Shown here piece by piece: positions 20,443 through 55,873 of a DNA stretch of 64,000 nt (positions within the stretch are counted from its first letter, which is position 1; the number at the start of each line of letters is the position of its first letter). Below the pieces are notes generated by a model. It was not told the DNA's origin, made no database searches, and saw only the letters and a program-made list of their open reading frames with translations. The stretch is taken from the NCBI GenBank assembly GCA_903859075.1, contig CAIOLF010000024.1, forward strand, positions 5,048 through 69,047, given 5' to 3'. The stretch is from Candidatus Buchananbacteria bacterium. GTDB taxonomy: Bacteria; Patescibacteriota; Patescibacteriia; 2-01-FULL-39-33. The translations under genes were made by a program, and so were the position numbers.

Positions 20443-20640
20443 CCTCATTGTTTTTGCTTCCGCAAAAACTTCTTCGTCCTGGGCAGAGCCAATGCTCCCA
20501 TTGGTCGCATTGTCTACACTCACCTGCGCTTTGTTTTGGCAAAATCCAAAACAAAGCTTGTTTCGTTTCTGCCCGTTCAATTCCCCTTAATAAAAACAGA
20601 TAATTAAAAAACATCCATAAATGGATGTTTTTTAATTAGT

Positions 20641-20710
20641 AGCCCCATGGGGAATTGAACCCCAGTTTTCTCCGTGAGAGGGAGATGTCCTAGCCACTAG
20701 ACGATGAGGC
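20641..20710 (-). tRNA. tRNA-Glu (anticodon CTC)
   Basis: minus-strand GCCTCATCGTCTAGTGGCTAGGACATCTCCCTCTCACGGAGAAAACTGGGGTTCAATTCCCCATGGGGCT; the D-arm resembles the E. coli tRNA-Glu TCGTCTAGAGGCCCAGGACA; anticodon loop CTCTCAC. Confidence 0.8.
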
Positions 20711-20778
20711 CGAATATTTAAATAAAGCTTAAATATTATACTCTTTATTTTTACAGATTTCAATAGTCAAACAAAAAA

Positions 20779-21339
20779 TTAATTCCCAAACTTATATACA
20801 AAAATCCTTTCCATCTGCTTGCCGTCACGACGCGTATCAACTATCTTTATCGGCTCAGTGTTGGGCAGCTTAAAGCCATAGGAAACTACTCGCGCCGTCG
20901 ATTTTAATTCTTTGGCAAATTTCGGCTCCAGCCGCGCCATTACCTCCGGAAATAAATAGCAGTAAACCACATCGGCGCCTGAGAGATCGGCCTTGAAAAA
21001 ATTTTTCATCCTCACTTCCACATTTGCTCGGCTGATAAGAATATTAAATTTAGACCACAAGTACGGCCACAGCGATAATTCATAGCCGATGCCCTTAGCG
21101 CCGAATTCCTTGGCCGCCAAGACCAGCAAGGAGGCCTTGCCGCAGCCCAAATCATAAATCTTTTCTCCCGGCTTTAAGTCAACCGCGGAAAGTATCTGGC
21201 GGTATTTGCGACGCGGGGTGGAGACAAACGGCACGCCGCGCGCCATAATCAGTCCGACGATTACGGAAATAAACAGGGAGAGAACGGCTACTAAAAAAAC
21301 TAGATAGCCGATGAGTATGAAGTATTGCCAAAAGGTCAT
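20779..21339 (-). CDS. membrane-anchored class I SAM-dependent methyltransferase
   Basis: N-terminal TM segment; SAM motif I IYDLGCGKASLLVLAA; acidic motif II region. Confidence 0.55.
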   Translation of the reverse strand: MTFWQYFILIGYLVFLVAVLSLFISVIVGLIMARGVPFVSTPRRKYRQILSAVDLKPGEKIYDLGCGKASLLVLAAKEFGAKGIGYELSLWPYLWSKFNILISRANVEVRMKNFFKADLSGADVVYCYLFPEVMARLEPKFAKELKSTARVVSYGFKLPNTEPIKIVDTRRDGKQMERIFVYKFGN

Positions 21340-21349
21340 ATTAACATTT

Positions 21350-22456
21350 TTAAATGTTTAAATCTTCGATCAATTTTTTCTGCTGGCGATCCAAGTGTTT
21401 GGGAATATCAACTATCACTTCCACCAAATGATCACCGCGCCCGCGACCCCGCAAGTGCGGCACTCCTTTTTCTCTTAGACGAAACTGGGTATGGCTCTGG
21501 GTTCCCTCGGGAATCCGCAAAGCCACCAGACCATCCACCGTCTCTACCTCTATTTTATCACCTAATGCCGCCTGTCGTATAGAGATATGCGCTTCTGAAC
21601 GGATATCATCTCCCGCTCTGTTAAATTTTTTATTAGGACGAATATGGATCTTCAGATATAAATCTCCCGCAGTCCCTTTGGACGCCACCTCACCCTTGCC
21701 TGACAATTTCAGCGACTGCTCGTCATTGATGCCGGCGGGAATATTTATCTTGATTTTTTCCGAACCCTTGGATATTCCTTCGCCGTGGCAATGCCGGCAT
21801 TTCTTTTCAATTTTTTTGCCTTCACCTTGGCATTCGGGACAAATCGTCTCCGTCGCCATATTGCCGAAGATGGTCTGCTGTACCCGCTGCACCCGTCCCC
21901 GGCCGCCGCAGTGCAAGCAATTGGATACCTTGCTGCCCGGCTCGGCGCCGCTGCCCCGGCACTCGGGACAATTAATATCTTTCTGCAGGTCAATTACTTT
22001 TTCCGCTCCAAAAACCGCTTCGGAAAAATCCACATCCAGCTCCACTTCCAAATCGCGGCCCCGGGCTGATTTCTTGCCGCTCTTGCGCCCGCCGCCGAAT
22101 AAATCTCCTAAACCGCCAAAAACATACTCCAAGTCCTCAAAATCGCCAAAGTTAAAACCCTGGCTGGAGAAGCCCTGGCCGAAAGGATTGCCGCGGGAAA
22201 AATCCTGAAAACCGCCAAATCCCTGACCGCCGGCCGGACCGCCGCCGGAAAAACTTTGGCCAAACTGGTCGTACTGCTGGCGTTTCTGCTCATTGCCCAG
22301 CGTCTGGTAGGCCTCATTGATCTCCTTGAATTTTTCCGCGTTGCCGCCCTGTTTATCGGGATGATGCTCATGCGCCAGTTTGCGGAAGGCCTTTTTTATC
22401 TCTTCGCCGGAAGATGTCTTGGAAACGCCTAATATATTGTAATAATCTTTAGCCAT
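21350..22456 (-). CDS. dnaJ: molecular chaperone DnaJ
   Basis: J-domain with HPD (YYNILGV...HHPDK), Gly/Phe-rich linker, four CxxCxGxG zinc-finger repeats. Confidence 0.9.
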   Translation of the reverse strand: MAKDYYNILGVSKTSSGEEIKKAFRKLAHEHHPDKQGGNAEKFKEINEAYQTLGNEQKRQQYDQFGQSFSGGGPAGGQGFGGFQDFSRGNPFGQGFSSQGFNFGDFEDLEYVFGGLGDLFGGGRKSGKKSARGRDLEVELDVDFSEAVFGAEKVIDLQKDINCPECRGSGAEPGSKVSNCLHCGGRGRVQRVQQTIFGNMATETICPECQGEGKKIEKKCRHCHGEGISKGSEKIKINIPAGINDEQSLKLSGKGEVASKGTAGDLYLKIHIRPNKKFNRAGDDIRSEAHISIRQAALGDKIEVETVDGLVALRIPEGTQSHTQFRLREKGVPHLRGRGRGDHLVEVIVDIPKHLDRQQKKLIEDLNI

Positions 22457-22469
22457 AACTTATAATTTT

Positions 22470-22763
22470 TTACGCTTGAAAACCGATTTCCTGCTTTGGG
22501 CTCTCCGCCTCCGTCACCGTGCCGAATTGGCTTTCATACTTCTTTAAATTATCTTGCAGGGCGGCAATCATGCGCTTCAAGTGCCCCGGATTGGTGATTA
22601 TCTTGGCTACCACCCGGCCGCCCGGCGCGACAATATTAAAAAATGACAAGATGAACTCCTGCTGATTATGCATTATCTGCATAGCATTGGCATATTCGCC
22701 GCCGACAAAATTATCAGTAATGCGAATTTCTTGCGGAGCGCTTTTTGTTGTTGGCTCGTTCAT
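22470..22763 (-). CDS. small DUF3467-like protein
   Basis: 97 aa; the ...YANAMQIMHNQQEFILSF... pattern resembles the DUF3467 family; sits between the activase trio and dnaJ. Confidence 0.35.
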   Translation of the reverse strand: MNEPTTKSAPQEIRITDNFVGGEYANAMQIMHNQQEFILSFFNIVAPGGRVVAKIITNPGHLKRMIAALQDNLKKYESQFGTVTEAESPKQEIGFQA

Positions 22764-22909
22764 AGAATTAAGAATTATGAATTAAGATCGTTAATATTGG
22801 ATATTAAGGATATTTATGATATTTTTTAATTAAATTCAATATCCCTAATATCTTAATTTCTAAATATCTTTAATATGTCTGTCATAAAATTACCAATTAC
22901 TAATTACTT

Positions 22910-23893
22910 TTAGGAAACTAGAATCTTATCCGCCGGTGACTTATCCAGATTTTCCGACCACTTGCCGCAACGGTCGCCCCAGCGCGCGATCACTTTGCCG
23001 TTTTCTTTGAATTCCACCACTTCGCATTTATTGGGGCAGTCCGTGCAATCAAAAGCGGTGGTCTCAAATTCCGATTTGATGATTTCAAAACCTTTGAAAT
23101 TCGTCTTGGCTGGATCCAGTTCCAGCGCCAAAATCGCCGCTCCAATCGCTCCCATGACATCAAAATTCTCCGGCACGATAACTTTTTCTCCCAGAGCCCG
23201 CTCAAATTCTTTGATAATTCCTTTATTAGCGGCAACGCCGCCCTGAAAAATTATCGGCGCTTCAATTTTTTTTCCTCGGGCGACATTACTCAAGTAATTG
23301 CGCACCAACGCCTCGCATAACCCGCGGATAATATCTTCACGCTTAGCTCCGATTTGCTGTTTATGTATCATATCCGATTCGGCAAAAACCGTACAGCGGC
23401 CGGCAATATTGACGTTGGCGGTGGAAGCCAGCGCCAGATCGCCAAATTCCTCAATCTGCAACCCCAGACGTCCGGCCTGCTGATCCAAAAATGATCCCGT
23501 ACCGGCGGCGCAAACGGTATTCATGGCAAAATCAGTAACCATTCCGCCCTCGAGAATTATAATTTTGGAATCCTGACCGCCGATTTCCAACACCGTCCTG
23601 ACTCCCGGCACTTCGCTCAGTGCCGCCATGGCATGGGAAGTGATCTCGTTTTTTACGATATCACCGCCGACTAAGATGCTCGCCAGCATGCGGCCGCTGC
23701 CGGTCGTGCCGACTCCAGCCACTCCGCAATCGTGGAGCTGGTCTTTTACGGCTGCCAAGCCTTCTTTGACGGCGCGAATCGGCTGGCCTTGGGTCCGGAT
23801 ATAAGACTTGGCCAGTAATTTTTTATTTTCATCAATCGCTACGACATTGCAGCTTACCGATCCGACATCAACGCCGAGATAAATTTTCTTCAT
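22910..23893 (-). CDS. BadF/BadG/BcrA/BcrD-type ATPase (HgdC-like acyl-CoA dehydratase activase) with a C-terminal Cys cluster
   Basis: N-terminal IYLGVDVGSVSCNVVAID actin-fold phosphate-1 motif, GVGTTGSG, conserved Cys pair; C-terminal CTDCPNKC...RCGKW. Confidence 0.6.
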   Translation of the reverse strand: MKKIYLGVDVGSVSCNVVAIDENKKLLAKSYIRTQGQPIRAVKEGLAAVKDQLHDCGVAGVGTTGSGRMLASILVGGDIVKNEITSHAMAALSEVPGVRTVLEIGGQDSKIIILEGGMVTDFAMNTVCAAGTGSFLDQQAGRLGLQIEEFGDLALASTANVNIAGRCTVFAESDMIHKQQIGAKREDIIRGLCEALVRNYLSNVARGKKIEAPIIFQGGVAANKGIIKEFERALGEKVIVPENFDVMGAIGAAILALELDPAKTNFKGFEIIKSEFETTAFDCTDCPNKCEVVEFKENGKVIARWGDRCGKWSENLDKSPADKILVS

Positions 23894-24978
23894 ATTTTTT
23901 GTTTTCTTTTTAGCAAATCAACGAACGCCTCCAAACGTGTCTGATATTGCGTATCGCTGGAATGAGTATCGCGCAAAAAGTGGATTATCGGCACGCCGTA
24001 GTCCTTGGCAATGCGGTCCAGTATCGGCTTCAGCAGCAAATCGGGCATGCAGCCGAATGACTGGAAGTGCACGATGCCGCTCGCGCCATTTTCCAATTCT
24101 TCCAATACTTCGCCGACGCTTAAGTCCAAAAAAGACGCCGGCGACGATTGCAGATATTTCTTGCCCTTAACCATCAGCTCCGCATACCTTTTTTGGTAAT
24201 CGCTCTTCAGCGGCACTTTATTCATGCCAAAAAATATCAACGAAAATTGCAATGACTGGCGCACTTCCGCTCCCAGCCGATTCAGCTTGCGGATAGTATC
24301 AAAATGCGAAAAAGGTTCGTGGACTTTGAACATATCGCCGACAAAAGCCACTTTGATTAATTTCTTTTCTTTATCAAGCGGAATGTTTTCCCATTCTTTC
24401 AAGGCCGCCCTAAATATTTTACGCGGCTGCCAGAATTTCTTGACACCGCAGAGCTCACTGTTCCATTTGGCCAGCCAGGCGTCAGTCTCGCCGTTATTTT
24501 TCTCGCGCGGCCGCGACCTGTTGGCCAGGTCGTTAATCTTATCAGCCGCCTCCAGCGTCAGGCAGAAAATCAGGATACCACGCAACATTTTAAACTTTGA
24601 TGGTCCGCCCATTACTTCCTTAAGCTGATCAAAAGATAAATCCAAGCCATAGCCGCCCCAATAATTGATGCGAAAATCCGGGTAGCCGTTTTCCCGCAGA
24701 ATCTGCGCCGTCCCCTCCCAAAGATCGACATAACGACAGGAGCGGATATCGCACAGGCCGTGGACAAAAATATTTGTTACTCCTTTTTCCGCCAGCTGCC
24801 TAAGATAACCGAGATAAAGCTTAAAAGGAAAGCAGGCATATTCCGGCGAATGCGCTTCGCCGAATTTGAGCATCGACTCATTGAGCGGCACTGGCAATTC
24901 AAACTCTTGGCCGAAATAATTAAACATGGCTTTCATGGCGATATATTCGTTAAGCGCTGGCACTGATCCGTATTTCAT
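23890..24978 (-). CDS. 2-hydroxyacyl-CoA dehydratase (HgdB/D-component)-like protein
   Basis: ATGA overlap with the downstream activase; length and architecture match the HGD-D domain seen in fused CoA-substrate-specific enzyme activases. Confidence 0.4.
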   Translation of the reverse strand: MKYGSVPALNEYIAMKAMFNYFGQEFELPVPLNESMLKFGEAHSPEYACFPFKLYLGYLRQLAEKGVTNIFVHGLCDIRSCRYVDLWEGTAQILRENGYPDFRINYWGGYGLDLSFDQLKEVMGGPSKFKMLRGILIFCLTLEAADKINDLANRSRPREKNNGETDAWLAKWNSELCGVKKFWQPRKIFRAALKEWENIPLDKEKKLIKVAFVGDMFKVHEPFSHFDTIRKLNRLGAEVRQSLQFSLIFFGMNKVPLKSDYQKRYAELMVKGKKYLQSSPASFLDLSVGEVLEELENGASGIVHFQSFGCMPDLLLKPILDRIAKDYGVPIIHFLRDTHSSDTQYQTRLEAFVDLLKRKQKI

Positions 24979-24982
24979 AAAA

Positions 24983-25894
24983 TTATTTCAACATATCAAA
25001 AAAAGCATCCAGACGAGTAAGCAGCCCGGCCTCGCCGCTGGATTCGTCAAAAGATATCGAGATGACCGGCTTATTTCTTCTTGCCAGGCGGATGGAAAAA
25101 TTCTCCATCAAAAAATCCGGCCCGCAATTAAAAGGAGTGGCATAAATTATGCCTTTGACATGAGGATCATGGCTGGCGGCAATGATTGCTCCGTATTCGC
25201 GATTAGTCAGACGCCAATGGTAATGATAGCATTTATGCAATTCGCCAAAACCCCGTTCAATGCCCTCATCGGAAAAATCATCCACCGTTTTTATTTCATA
25301 CCCCCTGGCTCTGATTTTTTTTAGCAGTTCCAAATTGGCTTGTTCATCATAAAGGAGGTAGGGGCGGCCAATAACGGCAATCACCGCTTTCCCATTGTCC
25401 TTGAACTTTTCAAAAATGTTTGGCGCTTCTTCCTGCACTTGGCTAGCCGCGTCGTAAGCGGCTTTCGCTTGCTGCTTATTTTTTCCCAATTGCTCGGCCA
25501 GTTCCAGCCAAGGCTCAGCCACCATCTTGCCGTCTAAAAACTTTATGACCGGCCGCAAAATTTTTAACTGGGGATACTCCGCCGCAAACATATCCGGCAT
25601 CGCCACAAAGTACGGGCAAAAATACTCCCTCTTGTCTTTGTCGCTGCTATAAGCGAATTCCTCGAACTGCGGTATCAGGATGTAATCGGCCAGGCCCTGA
25701 AGCGATAAGACATGGCCATAAAAGATTTTCATCGGCAGACACATTTCGCTATGCGAGTGTTTCAGCCCCAAATTCAATATCCGGCGATCGGTAGGATCGG
25801 AAATCACCACCTCAAAACCCAGCGCTTCAAAAAAAGCATTCCAAAAAGCATGGTAATAATAATATAATCCCGCGCGGGGTATGGCAATTTTCAT
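24983..25894 (-). CDS. DUF2229-like protein (CoA enzyme activase uncharacterised domain)
   Basis: N-terminus IAIPRAGLYYYYHAFWNAFFEALGFEVVIS...EMCLPMKIFYGHV matches the DUF2229 pattern (IGIPRAL.YYE..P.W..FF..LGFEVV). Confidence 0.45.
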   Translation of the reverse strand: MKIAIPRAGLYYYYHAFWNAFFEALGFEVVISDPTDRRILNLGLKHSHSEMCLPMKIFYGHVLSLQGLADYILIPQFEEFAYSSDKDKREYFCPYFVAMPDMFAAEYPQLKILRPVIKFLDGKMVAEPWLELAEQLGKNKQQAKAAYDAASQVQEEAPNIFEKFKDNGKAVIAVIGRPYLLYDEQANLELLKKIRARGYEIKTVDDFSDEGIERGFGELHKCYHYHWRLTNREYGAIIAASHDPHVKGIIYATPFNCGPDFLMENFSIRLARRNKPVISISFDESSGEAGLLTRLDAFFDMLK

Positions 25895-25948
25895 ATTTAA
25901 AAAACGCGCAGAGACGTCCGCCGCGGCGGACGTCTCTCTAAAATATAA

Positions 25949-27865
25949 TTATTTCTTTACTTCTTCGTACTGCCCATCAATCGGCCCTTGCTGACCGGCT
26001 TGCTGCTGTTCTCCAGCGCCCGCGGAACCGCCAGCGGACTTGTCCGCCGGAGCTTCAGCGGAGGCGGACTGATACATAGCCGCACCGACTTTCTGGATCG
26101 CTTCGGACAGCGTGTCATAATTGCGCTTGATAAGATCTTTGTCCTCGCCATCTTTGGCTTTTTTAAGATCTTCCACCTTATCCATTATATCTTTTCTGGT
26201 GCCGGCGTCAACTTTATCTCCGGCATCTTTGAGCGTTTTTTCCGTGGTAAAAATCAGGCTCTCCGCTTGATTTTTAAGATCGATGATTTCTTTTCTATTC
26301 TTATCTTCCTCGGCATGGGCGGCGGCATCATTTTTCATCCGCTCAATTTCATCCTTGGATAAGCCGGTTGATGCGGTGATTGTGATGTGCTGTTCGCGAC
26401 TGGTGGCCTTATCTTTGGCTTTGACATTTAAAATGCCGTTGGCATCAATATCAAAAGTCACTTCAATCTGCGGGACGCCGCGCGGAGCCGGCGGAATACC
26501 ATCTAGCATGAATTTACCCAGCGTCTTGTTGTCAGCCGCCATTGGTCGTTCGCCTTGCAAAACATGGATTTCCACACCTGGCTGATTATCGGCCGCGGTA
26601 GAAAATACCTGGCTGTGAGAGGTCGGGATGGTAGTATTGCGCTCAATCAGCGGGGTCATGACTCCGCCCAAGGTCTCAATACCCAAAGTCAGCGGGGTAA
26701 CATCTAAAAGCAACACATCTTTGACATCGCCTTGCAAAACCCCGGCCTGAACGGCGGCGCCGAGCGCCACTACTTCATCGGGATTGACGCTGATATTCGG
26801 CTTTTTGCCAAAAAATTCCTCTACCTTCTTTTGCACCAAAGGCATGCGGGTCATGCCGCCGACTAAAACTATTTCTTCAACATCTTTGGGCGACATGCCG
26901 GCATCTGACAAAGCTTTGCGTACCGGCTCAAAAGTTTTCTCTACGAATTCCATCACTAAGCTCTCTAATTGAGCTCGAGTAACTCTCATATTCAAATGCT
27001 TGGGCGAGCTATCGGCTCCCATCGTGATAAATGGCTGATTAATCTCGGTTTCCATCTGGGTGGAGAGCTCTATCTTGGCTTTTTCGGCCGCTTCTTTGAC
27101 GCGCTGCAGAGCGGTGATATCCTTGGAGAGATCAACGCCTTCCTGCTTCTTGAATTCATCCAAAATCCAGTTCATTATTTTGAGGTCAAAATCATCGCCG
27201 CCCAAATGCGTATCGCCATTGGTTGATTTCACTTCCACGGTGTCAGCGGCAACATCCAGCACGGAGACGTCAAAAGTACCGCCGCCCAAATCGTAAACCA
27301 CTATCTGCTGGCCGGCTTTCTTCTCAAAACCATAAGCCAAAGCGGCCGCGGTCGGCTCATTGATAATGCGCTTGACGGTGAGTCCAGCGATTTCTCCGGC
27401 ATCTTTGGTCGCTTGTCTCTGAGCGTCATTAAAATACGCCGGCACGGTAATTACCGCTTCGGTGATTTTTTCACCCAGTTTGGCCTCGGCGTCTTCCTTG
27501 AGCTTGGTCAGTACCATGGCGGAGATTTCCTGCGGGCTGTAATCCTTGCCGCCCATGACTATTTTTACTCCAGTGCCGGATTTTTTGATTTCAAACGGCA
27601 TCAGCTTGATATCGCGCTGCACTTCCGGATCATCCCAGGCGCGCCCGATAAGGCGCTTGATGGAAAAAAGCGTATTGGCGGGATTGGTAACGGCTTGGCG
27701 CTTGGCAGAGATTCCGACTAAGCGCTCGTTAGTTTTGGTGACCGCCACGATTGACGGGGTGGTGCGAGCTCCCTCCTTATTCTCTAATACTTTCGGCTGG
27801 CCGCCTTCAATGATGGCCAGGCAGGAATTGGTGGTTCCTAAATCGATTCCTAAAATTTTCGGCAT
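25949..27865 (-). CDS. dnaK: molecular chaperone DnaK (Hsp70)
   Basis: [37 protein letters not shown] and other Hsp70 signatures. Confidence 0.95.
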
Positions 27866-27875
27866 AGTATTTTTT

Positions 27876-27970
27876 TAATTAAGAATTATGAATTATGAAT
27901 TAAAAATTAAGAACTATGAATGAATTATTAATTAAGAAAACATCTTAATTCATAATTCATAATTCTTCAT
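27876..27970. repeat. AT-rich palindromic intergenic repeat (22-bp perfect inverted repeat aagaattatgaattatgaatta / taattcataattcataattctt) between grpE and dnaK
   Basis: arms at 27881-27902 and 27947-27968 with a 44-bp AT-rich spacer. Confidence 0.75.
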
Positions 27971-28446
27971 TACTTAGCTACTTTCACTTTCGCCGGGACC
28001 AACACTTTGCCATCCACCAGATAGCCCGGCTGGACTTCTTCAAAAACCAAATCGGCGTCAAAGCCGTCCTTTTGTTCATGCGAGAGCGCCTCATGCAGAT
28101 TATGATCAAATTTCTCGCCCACGGTATGAATTTCTTCAATATTATATTTTTTCAAAAACTCTTGGAATAATTTCTGGATCTGAATAACGCCGACCACCCA
28201 GGGTTCCTGGCGGCTCGCCTCGGGGATATGGCTCAGGGCCAGTTTGAAATGGCTGTAAATCGGCAAGAGCTCCGCCAGAGTACCGGCACTCACAAATTCC
28301 ATCATTTCCTGGGCCTGTTTTTCCTGTTCTTTCTTGAGATTGGAATAATCGGCCCGAGCGCGCTGCCACCCTGCCAAATGCTCTTGCGCCTTTTGTTCCG
28401 AGAGCGCTAATTCTTCCTGTAATTGTTCAATGGTCTTATCTTCCAT
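27970..28446 (-). CDS. grpE: nucleotide exchange factor GrpE
   Basis: coiled-coil N-terminus and GrpE C-terminal beta domain; hrcA-grpE-dnaK synteny. Confidence 0.85.
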   Translation of the reverse strand: MEDKTIEQLQEELALSEQKAQEHLAGWQRARADYSNLKKEQEKQAQEMMEFVSAGTLAELLPIYSHFKLALSHIPEASRQEPWVVGVIQIQKLFQEFLKKYNIEEIHTVGEKFDHNLHEALSHEQKDGFDADLVFEEVQPGYLVDGKVLVPAKVKVAK

Positions 28447-28462: not shown

Positions 28463-29161
28463 TTATTTTAATCCGCTGATTATCTCCTGCACTAATTTCA
28501 GCAGTCCCAAATTCCTGCGGTAATCCATGCGGTTCGGCCCCAGAATTCCAATCAACCCAGAAATGCCGGCCTGATCATATTTGACGAGTATCACCGAAGA
28601 CATCTCTCCAAAAGGATTGTCCTGACCCAAAAGTATCTTAGCTTCATCTTTAATCTCATAAAAAATTTTGCCCATGACGTCATCCAGATGATCAATAATT
28701 TCTGACATGGAAAAAACCAGCTGGGGCTGGGCAAATTCCGGCTGCTTGAATAAATTGGCGATGCCGGTGTAGTAAATATTGCTGGCCGCGAAACCGATTA
28801 GAATTGTGTTGTCAGAAATTTCCGCCAGCGCCTTGGCGAGCGTCTTAATGCCAATTTCATCAACCGGCAGTCCTGGCGCCAGCTGCTCCAGCTGTTTTCG
28901 ATCACGCTCGGAAATCTTGCCTTCGCCGATAAATTTGTCAATATAACGGCGATAGCCGAGAGCGGTAGGTATCCGACCGGCCGAGGTATGCGGCTGGAAA
29001 ATCAAGCCCTCTTCTTCCAGTTCGGCCATCTCATTTCTAATAGTTGCCGAGCTCAGCTCCGGCAGATATTTTTCAACTACCAGGGATGAACCGACGGGAT
29101 TGGCGCTTTCTATGTATTCCTCAACGATTATCTTTAATAAATTGTCTTTTCTTGATTCCAT
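28463..29161 (-). CDS. hrcA: heat-inducible transcription repressor HrcA (short, 232-aa form)
   Basis: N-terminal winged-helix IVEEYIESANPVGSSLVVEKY; CIRCE operator immediately upstream. Confidence 0.75.
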   Translation of the reverse strand: MESRKDNLLKIIVEEYIESANPVGSSLVVEKYLPELSSATIRNEMAELEEEGLIFQPHTSAGRIPTALGYRRYIDKFIGEGKISERDRKQLEQLAPGLPVDEIGIKTLAKALAEISDNTILIGFAASNIYYTGIANLFKQPEFAQPQLVFSMSEIIDHLDDVMGKIFYEIKDEAKILLGQDNPFGEMSSVILVKYDQAGISGLIGILGPNRMDYRRNLGLLKLVQEIISGLK

Positions 29162-29201: not shown

Positions 29202-29228
29202 TTAGCACTCACGTTGCTAGAGTGCTAA
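29202..29228. promoter_or_regulatory. CIRCE operator (TTAGCACTC-N9-GAGTGCTAA), the HrcA binding site
   Basis: ttagcactc acgttgcta gagtgctaa is a perfect match to the CIRCE consensus. Confidence 0.9.
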
Positions 29229-29232
29229 GTTA

Positions 29233-29261
29233 AATATAATGCATCTGAAAGAGCTTGTCAA
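29233..29261 (-). promoter_or_regulatory. sigma70-like promoter of the hrcA operon (TTGACA-17 nt-TATATT on the minus strand)
   Basis: minus-strand reading gcTTGACAagctctttcagatgcatTATATTtaac lies directly upstream of CIRCE. Confidence 0.55.
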
Positions 29262-29299
29262 GCTTTATCAATTATGAATTATGAATTAAAAAAAATAGC

Positions 29300-29340: not shown

Positions 29341-29384
29341 TTTATATAAATTATTAATCTTAATTCTTAATTCGTAATTCGTAA

Positions 29385-30252: not shown

Positions 30253-31381
30253 TTATAATACCGAAATTACTTTTTTAATCTTGTATCCTTGGCAATGCTG
30301 GAGCAGCCCCAGATATGATTGTCGGCTTTGCTTCAATTTTTCAGCGCCAAGTAATCCAGATTCGGTTAGCAAGCGTTTTTCTTTCAACTTTTTTAGCATC
30401 CTTCTTTTGGTCTTGGTCCGTAAAACGCGATGATCAAAAAAATTAATCATGCCTAAAAAATCAACGCCCGAAGATAGTGTCTTAATAAAAATCTTGTCCG
30501 GATGTAAGGCTAATTTAAGTTTGTTTGACAAATAATCGCCTATCAGCGGAATTAAATTTTCCAAATATACTTTGTCGTCAAAAAATATTACAAAATCGTC
30601 GGCATAACGGATATAATGCTTTATTTTTAACTCATGTTTGATAAATTGATCAAATTTATTCAGATAAATATTGACCAGCAATTGCGAGGTAAGGTTGCCG
30701 AGCGGCAGGCCATGCGCCTTTGTATTTTCCCCCTCCCCTTTATAAGGGGAGGGTTGGGGAGGGGTAATTTCCGAATTATCATTACCCCCTCTGGCTCCCC
30801 GTTTGAAAGGGGGAGAAAAAAACACCTGCCGCAAAACTATCAATCACCTCATCCAATAAACCTAAAATTCTCTTATTGGGAATATATTCAGCTAAAATAT
30901 TTTTTAATATTCGATGGTCGATACTGGCAAAAAATTTCCTGATATCGCCTTTCAAAATCCAGCAAGTATGGGTATTATTTTTACTAACCGCATAGGCGAA
31001 TTTCTGGAATCTGACTAGGGCTTTATGCGTCCCTTTCCCTAGCCGGCAAGAATAGGAATCGCTGATGAAAATGCGATCGAAGAAAGGATACAAAATCCGA
31101 TAAATGGCATGATGGACTAATCTGTCCCTGACGCCGGCTTTATGGATGTTTCGGGGTTTGGGATCGCAGATGTTAAAGGCCTGATAGCCGCCATGGCGAT
31201 AATTGCCAGTTGCCGGATCAGAGTGCAATGCGATAAGATTATTCATGAGGCGCGATTGGAACTGCTGGACGTCTGATTTATTTCTTTTGCCTTTGATAAA
31301 TTCTCGCCAGGCGGATAATAAATTTTCTAAACTAATAATATCTTCAAACGTATGGCTCAATTGGATTTTGTTCCGGTTCAT
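30253..31381 (-). pseudogene. DGR-type reverse transcriptase, split into two frames by a ~100-bp GC-rich palindromic insertion (a homopolymer error is an alternative)
   Basis: N-part (frame A, to 30782): SLENLLSAWREFIKGKRNK, KPRNIHKAGVRDRLVHHAIY, SYSCRLGKGTHKAL, ILKGDIRKFFASIDH; C-part (frame B): HGLPLGNLTSQLLVNIYL (DGR hallmark GNLTSQ), IRYADDFVIFF, LHPDKIFIK; the frames differ by 1 nt across the insert at 30721-30821. Confidence 0.75.
30721..30821. mobile_element. GC-rich palindromic miniature element (copy 1), two CTCCCC-loop-GGGGAG hairpins in inverted orientation, inserted in the RT gene
   Basis: ccccctcccctttataaggggagggttggggaggggtaa ... taccccctctggctccccgtttgaaagggggag; compositionally alien to the AT-rich flanks; second copy at 62749-62852. 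Confidence 0.6.
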
Positions 31382-31778
31382 AATGATAAAATAAATTCTA
31401 CCCCCCCCCTCGTCCACGAATTTATTCATTTTTAATAAAGCCGTTGCCGCGTACAAATCGTGGCATGAGTGGCTGAAAAACTTTCCCAAACACTCGCGCT
31501 ATGCTCTGGGCTCGCGGGCCGACCAGATATTTCTTGATCTGCTGGAACTGCTGTTTACGGCCGGCTATCTGCCTAAAAATAAAAAACTGGAGCCGGCAAT
31601 AAAATCCATCGGCAAAATAGATCTGTTGAAATTTTATCTGCGCTTATGCTGGGAAATGAAACTTCTAAGCGACAATAAATTCCAAATTCTGGGTGTAAAA
31701 ATGGAGGAAATCGGCCGGCTGTCGTGGGCCTGGAAAAATAATTTAGAAAAAACATCCTCGCCGGAAGCGAAGATGTAA
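31352..31778 (+). CDS. Avd-like four-helix-bundle accessory protein, antisense to the RT start; continuously in frame only from 31395
   Basis: translation from 31395: ...NLFIFNKAVAAYKSWHEWLKNFPKHSRYALGSRADQIFLDLLELLFTAGYLPKNKKLEPAIKSIGKIDLLKFYLRLCWEMKLLSDNKFQILGVKMEEIGRLSWAWKNNLEKTS, which fits the TIGR02436/Avd pattern (L.vwq.a...FPK.e.y.LgsQ...); ATG 31352 is in frame only if the C9 run (31401-31409) were C8. Confidence 0.45.
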
Positions 31779-47311: not shown

Positions 47312-47346
47312 CGGTAATTTAAAATTATGAATTAAGAATTAAAAAA

Positions 47347-53821: not shown

Positions 53822-55873
<2,052 letters not shown>

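Follow-up and report, generated by a model that had tools for sequence, protein, structure and literature searches.

Why does a heat-shock operon carry, between its two best-known chaperone genes, what appears to be a complete radical enzyme? The question is raised by a stretch of 64,000 nucleotides (nt) of Candidatus Buchananbacteria bacterium, a member of the Patescibacteria (contig CAIOLF010000024.1, positions 5,048 to 69,047; hereafter the window), in which three genes that we call Red1, Red2 and Act, together the cassette, lie between dnaK and dnaJ. Using open reading frames (ORFs) from a six-frame list and families assigned with Pfam and NCBIfam, we found the genes of this operon all on the minus strand, in the order CIRCE-hrcA-grpE-dnaK-Red1-Red2-Act-DUF3467-dnaJ-methyltransferase, where CIRCE (controlling inverted repeat of chaperone expression) is the HrcA binding site. 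An earlier note on this DNA had described the block from hrcA to dnaJ, and every ORF indeed lies where the note had placed it, on the minus strand, with hrcA, grpE, dnaK and dnaJ flanking the insertion. What is new is that a class I heat-shock operon carries a passenger without precedent, a split enzyme resembling the ether-lipid enzymes PlsA and Ger, while both underlying kinds, the operon and the enzyme, are known. Our favoured explanation is that such a cassette was inserted here, is expressed in coupling with dnaK and serves lipid etherification; taken as a whole, we regard it as evenly poised.

What do the three genes encode? Red1 (24983..25894, minus strand; 303 aa) is matched by the DUF2229 family PF09989 over nearly the entire profile (positions 1-216 of 218; 163.2 bits, E 9e-48) and is accordingly taken as a DUF2229 catalytic subunit; against HGD-D (PF06050) it reaches a sub-threshold 19.6 bits. 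Act (22910..23893, minus strand; 327 aa) is assigned to the HgdC/BcrAD-type ATPases by TIGR00241 (177.5 bits with a cut-off of 125.4 bits, profile positions 2-248 of 248) and by PF01869 (160 bits). Red2 (23890..24978, minus strand; 362 aa), a HadC/HgdB-like catalytic subunit, is matched weakly at its N-terminus by DUF2229 (32.1 bits, over the gathering score of 29.4), and at its C-terminus HGD-D scores 27.5 bits, just under the gathering score of 28.4, the HGD-D match being limited to the C-terminal 60-80 residues. The profile searches with PF09989, TIGR00241, PF01869 and, for the DUF3467 protein, PF11950 bear out the families that had been proposed for these genes; the HGD-D label given to Red2 falls short by sequence, but the fold supports it. 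Indeed, when the AlphaFold2 model of Red2 (predicted local distance difference test, pLDDT, 92; predicted template modelling score, pTM, 0.91) was compared with the PDB using Foldseek, the best 17 matches were all catalytic subunits of 2-hydroxyisocaproyl-CoA dehydratase (HadB/C) or of benzoyl-CoA reductases (BzdN/O, MbdN), or the double-cubane cluster protein DCCP (E 9e-9 to 8e-6, template modelling score, TM, 0.52-0.61, 10-15% identity), headed by HadC (3o3n_B, E 9e-9, TM 0.61), with the next match at E 7e-3. With a profile of the Red2 family, the C-terminal Cys-x-Pro and TRLEAF were matched to DCCP with E 0.008 and to HadC with E 0.04, the Cys-x-Pro aligning with FCQP of DCCP and FCDPE of HadC. 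A sequence search of solved structures with Red1 returned nothing relevant, and Act matched MbdQ (3e-39), HgdC (1hux, 3e-37) and HadI (1e-35).

The cysteines of the three proteins follow a consistent pattern. In Red1, C52, C93 and C257 are invariant among 80 homologues, and in Red2 the same holds for C49, C81 and C310 among 103 homologues; both proteins end in a TRLEAF-type motif. Based on the three invariant cysteines in each and this common ending, we regard Red1 and Red2 as paralogous catalytic subunits, each with three cysteines for a predicted [4Fe-4S] site. In Act, the putative bridging-cluster cysteines Cys128 (VCAAGTG) and Cys167 (RCTVFAES) align with MbdQ and with both activation domains of the fused proteins considered below; the ligands of the bridging [4Fe-4S] cluster in HgdC we take to be Cys127 and Cys166. 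Act has in addition a C-terminal motif, C283-x2-C286-x3-C290...C309, which lies beyond the end of HgdC, HadI and MbdQ (about 260 aa), whose alignments to Act end near residue 258. Red2 and Act share 4 nt (ATGA at 23890), whereas Red1 and Red2 are separated by a gap of 4 nt, so that the 4-nt overlaps formerly claimed for all three genes hold for the second junction and not for the first. This spacing suggests that Red1, Red2 and Act are translationally coupled and form a stoichiometric complex. Judged from these sequences, the three genes very probably encode a self-contained, three-subunit enzyme of the DUF2229 branch of the ATP-dependent [4Fe-4S] radical reductase/dehydratase superfamily, in which an Act homodimer would bridge a [4Fe-4S] cluster through Cys128 and Cys167 and would inject a low-potential electron upon ATP hydrolysis.

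Which characterised enzymes does this unit resemble most? In the plasmalogen synthase PlsA/PlsR, DUF2229 and HGD-D segments come after two BcrAD_BadFG domains (PMC9702350, PMC12838417), and the glycerol ester reductase Ger has the same Act-Act-Red1-Red2 architecture (PMC13159169). In membrane glycerolipids these enzymes turn the sn-1 ester into a vinyl or alkyl ether, and each is active when it alone is expressed in E. coli (PMC13159169, PMC9702350, PMC12838417; mechanism PMC8788747). Known members are CPE1194/1195 of Clostridium perfringens and the single-gene PlsA of Enterococcus, Lactococcus and Bifidobacterium, and for Ger, Tmari_0479 of Thermotoga maritima and the enzyme of Desulfatibacillum alkenivorans. 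They are the only characterised relatives of the split cassette and were discovered recently.

As proxies for the validated PlsA (Q8XL48/Q8XL47, Q835P9) and Ger (AGL49404, SHJ90043) we used fused proteins of Desulfatibacillum sp. (L091), a deltaproteobacterium (L090) and Ca. Brocadiia. The fusions of L091 and L090 are 1339-1460 aa long and contain, by Pfam, two BcrAD domains and DUF2229. Red1 aligns to residues 671-979 of the 1402-aa L090 fusion (25-30% identity, E 1e-33) and Red2 to residues 1021-1388 (18.5% identity, E 5e-9), while the best match of Act, over its whole length, is to the second activation domain (Act2) of the fusions. The Red1 cysteines, in CxPxK, FCPY and FxCGPD contexts, are common to the fusions, as are the Red2 cysteines and the TRLEAF motif, and the four-cysteine tail of Act is present in Act2 and absent from the first activation domain (Act1). 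An exhaustive HMMER search with Red1 yielded 2,460 clusters at 50% identity, 285 of them at E <= 1e-30, and the best 150 matches form a continuum from stand-alone proteins of 300-350 aa through Red1-Red2 fusions of 670-765 aa to fully fused proteins of about 1,400 aa. These longest forms, the nearest of which come from Ca. Brocadiia/Planctomycetota, score similarly to most split relatives, and at 25-33% identity the proxy fusions are no closer to Red1 than the split relatives are. On the strength of the alignments we hold with high confidence that the cassette corresponds to the fused Act1-Act2-Red1-Red2 proteins in a split form with permuted gene order (Red1-Red2-Act). The earlier note had equated its domain content with that of fused "CoA-substrate-specific enzyme activase" proteins, for which the collinear order and the common cysteines now speak in detail; its further statement that the substrates of these fusions are unknown is outdated, given the lipid esters assigned to PlsA/PlsR and Ger (PMC9702350, PMC13159169, PMC12838417).

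The cassette thus shares with PlsA and Ger the domain set of BcrAD_BadFG, DUF2229 and HGD-D-like parts, the collinear Red1-Red2 halves, the three cysteines per half within the same flanking motifs, the Act2-type CxxCxxxC...C tail and the independence from pathway partners. It differs in being made of three genes, not a single polypeptide or a PlsA and PlsR pair, and in having a single Act gene, presumably for a homodimer, instead of two fused Act domains. Identity to the fusions is limited to 25-33% for Red1, about 18% for Red2 and 32-43% for Act. Unlike the cassette, which sits inside a heat-shock operon, PlsA of facultative anaerobes adjoins a TetR/AcrR-type regulator (PMC9702350).

Does the kinship extend to the substrate? 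[quoted passage not shown] The HAD, class I BCR and DCCP systems (HgdAB/HgdC, HadBC/HadI, BzdNOPQ, MbdONPQ, DCCP/DCCP-R) indeed have an ATP-dependent activator with a bridging [4Fe-4S] cluster, as predicted for Act, and Cys-ligated clusters in catalytic subunits that share one fold, as predicted for Red1 and Red2, and they too are encoded with activator and catalytic subunits in separate genes. The fold and Cys pattern of the cassette match HadBC, BzdNO and DCCP, and NCBI names its split relatives "CoA protein activase", "2-hydroxyacyl-CoA dehydratase" or "acyl-CoA dehydratase activase-related protein". Yet Red2 is only 10-15% identical to HadC, BzdO and DCCP and stays below the HGD-D threshold, Red1 is a full-length match to PF09989, the motifs and the Act2-type tail are those of PlsA/Ger-type fusions, and the additional four-cysteine domain of Act distinguishes it from the activators HgdC and HadI.

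The genomic surroundings offer a further means to separate a soluble from a lipid substrate. No gene for a CoA-transferase, an acyl-CoA dehydrogenase/electron-transfer flavoprotein or an aromatic pathway was found in the operon of the window, and none for a CoA-transferase, an acyl-CoA dehydrogenase or aromatic metabolism among the annotated recurrent neighbours of 70 other cassette loci, all outside the candidate phyla radiation (CPR). These 70 loci have no recurrent partner at all: the most frequent neighbours, such as a chromate transporter, amylase, WhiA, an HI0933 flavoprotein, RodZ and PrsW, occur in at most 12 of them, and an inference of the pathway by guilt by association was rejected for this reason. 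The cassette is therefore self-contained, like PlsA and Ger and unlike the metabolic dehydratases and reductases. The metabolism of Patescibacteria is very reduced, which also speaks against a soluble substrate. Together, we consider a soluble substrate unlikely.

A lipid ester-to-ether function, by analogy with PlsA and Ger, is possible, and we propose it tentatively as our best guess. In this case the enzyme would act on membrane glycerolipids, reducing their sn-1 acyl ester to a vinyl or alkyl ether, and scavenged lipids would be remodelled into more stress-resistant ether lipids alongside protein repair; as far as we are aware, Patescibacteria are commonly regarded as incapable of lipid synthesis of their own. 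Plasmalogen-making E. coli shows higher resistance to oxidative and osmotic stress (PMC12838417). Several points tell against this assignment. Identity to the fusions is low, above all for Red2, and the sequence does not discriminate PlsA from Ger, in a family in which the number of activation domains is tied to the type of product (PMC13274423). Bacillota hold, beside bona fide PlsA, additional homologues of PlsA that lack the activation domain and have no clear role (PMC13274423). The split family may be identical with these, in which case it would be a paralogue with a distinct function, and their presence is compatible with a different, soluble substrate. In addition, the literature gives a mixed picture of how bacterial ether lipids respond to temperature.

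Is the position of the cassette between dnaK and dnaJ a peculiarity of a single genome? We inspected gene tables of four relatives and screened 91 loci for synteny with tblastn. A search with Red2 delineated a clade of about 30 proteins at 47-93% identity, some of them named Candidatus Buchananbacteria or Patescibacteria group, outside of which identity drops to <30% (Bacillota, Chloroflexota and others). Wherever an orthologous Patescibacteria locus has enough flanking sequence, the cassette is situated between dnaK and dnaJ; this concerns about 9-10 distinct loci, which fall into two subclades. Both genes flank it in L001/L020, L003/L021, L005/L014, L007/L052, L013, L015, L018 and L022, and the partial contigs L002, L016 and L017 show the downstream neighbours DUF3467 and dnaJ only. 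Subclade 1 (DnaK 82-86% identical to that of the window) has the order dnaK-cassette-DUF3467-dnaJ-methyltransferase, often with hsp20 before dnaK. Subclade 2 (DnaK 67-69%) is without DUF3467 and carries one or two HtrA-type proteases between Act and dnaJ. The synteny thus holds down to 47% identity in Red2 and 67% in DnaK. An arrangement that returns in each sufficiently long orthologous locus is not a matter of chance.

The HtrA-type proteases (Trypsin_2 and PDZ domains) lie at 6436-7692 in L013, at 12248-14284 in L015 and at 8284-11080 in L007, where an RtcB RNA ligase also stands between Act and dnaJ. In the subclade without DUF3467, stress-response genes hence flank the cassette on both sides. 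The identities of Red2 and Act to the window proteins do not follow that of DnaK between the two Patescibacteria subclades.

The same three genes, in the same order and with the same invariant cysteines, occur in Clostridia, Atribacterota, Chloroflexota and Asgard archaea, where their contexts are unrelated and they are never beside dnaK or dnaJ: neither gene was found within 10 kb of any of about 65 split cassettes, which come from Clostridia, Atribacterota, Asgard archaea, Bathyarchaeia and one member of the Nealsonbacteria. Act is 70-77% identical within the clade and still 54-64% identical to archaeal and clostridial copies, as opposed to 25-34% for Red1 and Red2 against split copies outside the clade. 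Act is hence strikingly conserved across CPR bacteria, Clostridia and Asgard archaea, and its partners far less so. In Clostridia we also noted Red1-Red2 pairs without an adjacent Act, or two cassettes per contig (L061, L065, L066, L071-L073, L082; L030, L044, L046, L053, L069), where L061, L065, L066, L071-L073 and L082 are Thermoanaerobacter/Thermoanaerobacterium; Thermoanaerobacter kivui is a reported plasmalogen producer (PMC10601643). The window proteins and their relatives are named generically or not at all in public records, and the searched literature contains no description of this operon arrangement, of DUF3467 in dnaK operons or of an experimental function for the split DUF2229 cassette, in keeping with the earlier view of an unusual and apparently undescribed operon organisation.

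What, then, is usual at this position, and does the position imply a function? The DUF3467 protein (22470..22763, minus strand; 97 aa; PF11950, 62.7 bits), listed in the earlier note between Act and dnaJ, belongs to the resident gene set and not to the insertion. Its homologues, at 57-89% identity, are common across Patescibacteria, and in cassette-free genomes DUF3467 still lies directly before dnaJ. A metagenome scan seeded with DUF3467 gave 83 loci, with dnaK upstream in 50 of 55 informative cases and dnaJ downstream in 61 of 65; the cassette was present in only 2 of the 83, both on contigs already among the cassette loci. Given this flanking, dnaK-DUF3467-dnaJ is the resident Patescibacteria core, and the insertion of the cassette between dnaK and DUF3467 is specific to one lineage.

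Elsewhere, the slot downstream of dnaK holds unrelated singleton cargo (between dnaK and DUF3467 in L092, L100, L116, L117, L124, L126, L143, L148, L155 and L174, and at 3464-4978 of L007): a 436-aa poly-ferredoxin (L092), a pilin-like protein, a DUF559 endonuclease, a 23S-IVP-like protein, a TPR protein, a Trp-repressor-like protein, a peptidase S51, an HD protein, an IS200-like fragment and a 1403-aa surface protein. The slot downstream of dnaK is thus an insertion hotspot, and the cassette is its only cargo that has been kept across many lineages. We considered, based on the poly-ferredoxin, that the slot might attract Fe-S proteins, and rejected this as the other cargos are unrelated.

This variety of cargo means that the location alone is no proof of a functional link, and it bears on two alternative explanations. 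According to the first, the cassette is neutral or opportunistic cargo that entered a permissive slot after the dnaK hairpin described below, has its own regulation, is unrelated to heat shock and is kept by genomic inertia; its occurrence elsewhere without a fixed context fits this explanation as well. Set against it is the retention in about 9-10 distinct loci, unlike any other cargo, over a divergence of 67-86% identity in DnaK and 47-61% in Red2, while the sequences beyond the operon differ between the loci that retain it. According to the second, the three proteins form a reductive [4Fe-4S] system that works with or depends on DnaK and DnaJ, for example in the maturation or repair of Fe-S proteins or because the chaperones protect an oxygen- and heat-labile enzyme. 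The adjacency to dnaK and dnaJ is conserved and L092 has a different Fe-S protein in the same slot, which would be in line with such a link; the searched literature, however, holds no precedent for it, none of the remaining cargos is an Fe-S protein, the cassette stands without neighbouring chaperone genes in about 65 further loci, that of Nealsonbacteria among them, and DUF3467 has neither cysteines nor a recognisable link by fold. We consider this second explanation very improbable, and the earlier suggestion of an enzyme acting with, or protected by, the chaperones found no support in a slot that is a hotspot for unrelated genes. In the favoured explanation the cassette was instead inserted, in one Patescibacteria lineage, into the variable slot downstream of dnaK and ahead of DUF3467-dnaJ, or of HtrA-dnaJ in the second subclade, and it has since been kept at this site for a long time.

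The resident DUF3467 protein deserves attention of its own as a candidate for an undescribed accessory protein of the Hsp70 system. It is highly conserved, has about 95 aa, is Cys-free and combines a conserved but predicted-disordered N-terminal DNFxGGEYAN motif with a three-strand-plus-helix core. Its structure model is of moderate quality (pLDDT 70), and Foldseek found no significant match in the PDB (best E 0.5); Whirly/PUR-like and BiP matches were not significant and were set aside as noise. A DUF3467 protein of P. gingivalis is increased 5-fold together with GroES after chlorhexidine (PMC11986949), the sole match in the literature. The AT-rich spacer between Act and DUF3467 (22764..22909, minus strand; 146 nt) contains a 15-bp inverted repeat, AT-rich GATATTAGGGATATT / AATATCCTTAATATC, at about 22852-22838 and 22814-22800 with a loop of 23 nt, together with heptamer repeats (22765-22785). 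The fold of the spacer is not significant (z -0.6), and the equivalent spacer measures 9-40 nt in L001, L003, L014, L016 and L018. The 15-bp repeat could be an operator or a remnant of insertion.

Is the cassette transcribed together with dnaK? The earlier note regarded co-expression with Hsp70 as implied by the position within the HrcA/CIRCE regulon. This is too strong for the window, where the 54-nt gap between dnaK and Red1 contains a stem-loop followed by six T (25899..25937, minus strand; a terminator-like match), which we regard as a candidate partial terminator or mRNA stabiliser. The stem of 12 bp, with 8 G-C pairs, spans 25937..25910, and the T-run follows 5 nt on at 25904..25899. The hairpin has a minimum free energy of -25.9 kcal/mol (z -4.54), and none of 200 shuffled sequences was as stable. 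Between the T-run and the ATG of Red1 only 4 nt (AAAT) remain, so that no promoter fits there; the region 25895-25948 therefore holds a terminator-like element and no isolating promoter. The start codon of Red1 can pair with the sequence before it in a weak AU stem, and an RNA thermometer at this site was set aside because the stem adds only about 1.5 kcal/mol.

Besides this strong hairpin and T-run after dnaK, further observations argue for a separate regulation. A promoter-like TTGACG-16-TATAAT inside the 3' part of dnaK (26211..26184, minus strand; 11/12), about 290 nt before Red1, could be an internal promoter of the cassette or a chance occurrence, and a second, poorer candidate lies at 25976..25948 (9/12), also in the 3' part of dnaK. 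In L003, L015 and L022 a comparable hairpin is likewise found after dnaK, in L013 and L018 it is not; L003 has both a terminator-like hairpin and a promoter-like TTGATA-17-TAAAAT before Red1, and L005/L014 carry a 4.7-kb gene between dnaK and the cassette. Because of the hairpins, the sites in L003 and within dnaK and the additional gene in L005/L014, control of the cassette by HrcA is uncertain and may vary between loci. On the other side, the gap in L018 is 9 nt, and in L013 all junctions from dnaK to dnaJ are gaps of <=34 nt or overlaps; such tight packing leaves no room for a promoter of the cassette's own and speaks strongly for co-transcription in these two loci.

For the window, read-through of the hairpin is the most economical reading, and co-expression of the cassette with dnaK by this route is somewhat favoured by the sequence. 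Transcripts initiated at the CIRCE promoter, or at one upstream of dnaK, would extend through the hairpin, which would lower or stabilise the downstream mRNA like the post-dnaK stem-loops of other dnaK operons, and the level of the enzyme would rise with Hsp70 under heat or proteotoxic stress. The same evidence completes the case of the neutral cargo: post-dnaK hairpins in 4 of 7 loci, some of them terminator-like, and the promoter-like site of L003 are in its favour, whereas the gaps of <=34 nt or overlaps between heat-shock genes in L013 and L018 contradict a regulation of its own. Weighing these, we consider the neutral explanation rather improbable.

What would the favoured explanation mean? 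Split three-gene DUF2229 cassettes are widespread, occurring in Clostridia, Chloroflexota, Atribacterota, Asgard archaea and CPR bacteria, and the HrcA-controlled chaperone operon is the only conserved and interpretable genomic context that we found for them. This context leads to a concrete hypothesis, namely stress-induced lipid etherification. We speculate that the heat-shock regulon is extended to the membrane, such that a split PlsA/Ger-like enzyme, co-induced with DnaK, DUF3467 and DnaJ (and HtrA), would turn the ester phospholipids that the cell scavenges into (vinyl) ether lipids under stress; this full scenario, built on analogy, is a minority prospect in our estimate. If it is true, the cassette would be the first ether-lipid synthase under heat-shock control and would provide the first functional assignment for the three-gene split DUF2229 cassettes, show how ultra-small symbionts that scavenge their lipids adapt their membranes, extend the class I heat-shock regulon beyond its known range and bear on the ether-lipid potential claimed for Asgard archaea. 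If it is false, the locus remains a record of a core operon with an insertion hotspot within it and with a conserved, uncharacterised member, DUF3467.

How far does the operon otherwise conform to the class I type? In Bacillus subtilis, as an example of Gram-positive bacteria, the class I heat-shock operon reads hrcA-grpE-dnaK-dnaJ-prmA-.... The window resembles it in the perfect CIRCE between promoter and hrcA, the order hrcA-grpE-dnaK...dnaJ, a methyltransferase after dnaJ and a stem-loop after dnaK. It differs in that dnaK and dnaJ are split by DUF3467, as is general in Patescibacteria, and additionally, in this lineage, by the 3-kb radical-enzyme cassette. A sigma-70-like promoter, TTGACA-17-TATATT (29233..29261, minus strand; 11/12 consensus match), stands immediately upstream of CIRCE, a perfect 9-N9-9 repeat TTAGCACTC-N9-GAGTGCTAA at 29202..29228 (strand not assigned). 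The element had been placed there before, and it is unique: it is the sole match in the window at <=3 mismatches, with 0 expected, so that no second or degenerate CIRCE precedes the cassette or DUF3467 at this threshold. Each of 14 related loci has one perfect copy in the same place upstream of hrcA.

The remaining genes are those expected of such an operon. The gene hrcA (28463..29161, minus strand; PF01628) encodes a short form of 232 aa, which scores 172.7 bits with TIGR00331, under the cut-off of 197.2. HrcA measures 228-246 aa in these Patescibacteria, compared with about 340 aa for the TIGR00331 model, and is always paired with a perfect CIRCE; the window protein is about 100 aa shorter than the usual class I HrcA. 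It is followed by grpE (27970..28446, minus strand; PF01025, E 1e-37), dnaK (25949..27865, minus strand; NF001413 978 bits, TIGR02350 960 bits) and, beyond the cassette and DUF3467, dnaJ (21350..22456, minus strand; TIGR02349 396.8 bits, over the cut-off of 377.2). The conserved last gene encodes a small methyltransferase of 186 aa, protein-lysine or PrmA-like (20779..21339, minus strand; NF041081 E 3e-21, below cut-off, and weak PrmA matches), a homologue of which directly follows dnaJ in L001, L003, L014, L016, L018 and L092. Downstream of it in the window lie tRNA-Glu (20639-20711) and a terminator-like hairpin; an Rfam scan of the window returned two tRNAs and no other known RNA element.

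Two minor observations concern the window itself. A tandem 7-nt motif, TTAATTC/ATAATTC, has 17 matches where 1.5 are expected, at 22765-22785, 27883-27965, 29269-29289, 29360-29380, 47322-47342 and 54246-54266. It is concentrated in three intergenic regions of the operon, i.e. before the -35 box of hrcA, in the spacer between grpE and dnaK (in both orientations) and just before the start of DUF3467. As a conserved regulatory element it was rejected, being present in 0 loci of the cassette clade and once each in the unrelated L035 and L146; the motif appears genome-specific and could be an UP-like element, a translation leader or a regulator site. Finally, a reverse-transcriptase gene (RVT_1) at 30253-31489 on the minus strand is broken into two ORFs, one matching model positions 10-97 and the other 111-203, and its halves are separated by a short insert with a G/C-rich palindrome, CCCTCCCCTT/AAGGGGAGGG, at 30731-30753. 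Here, a small palindromic element probably disrupts a reverse transcriptase of retron or group-II type.

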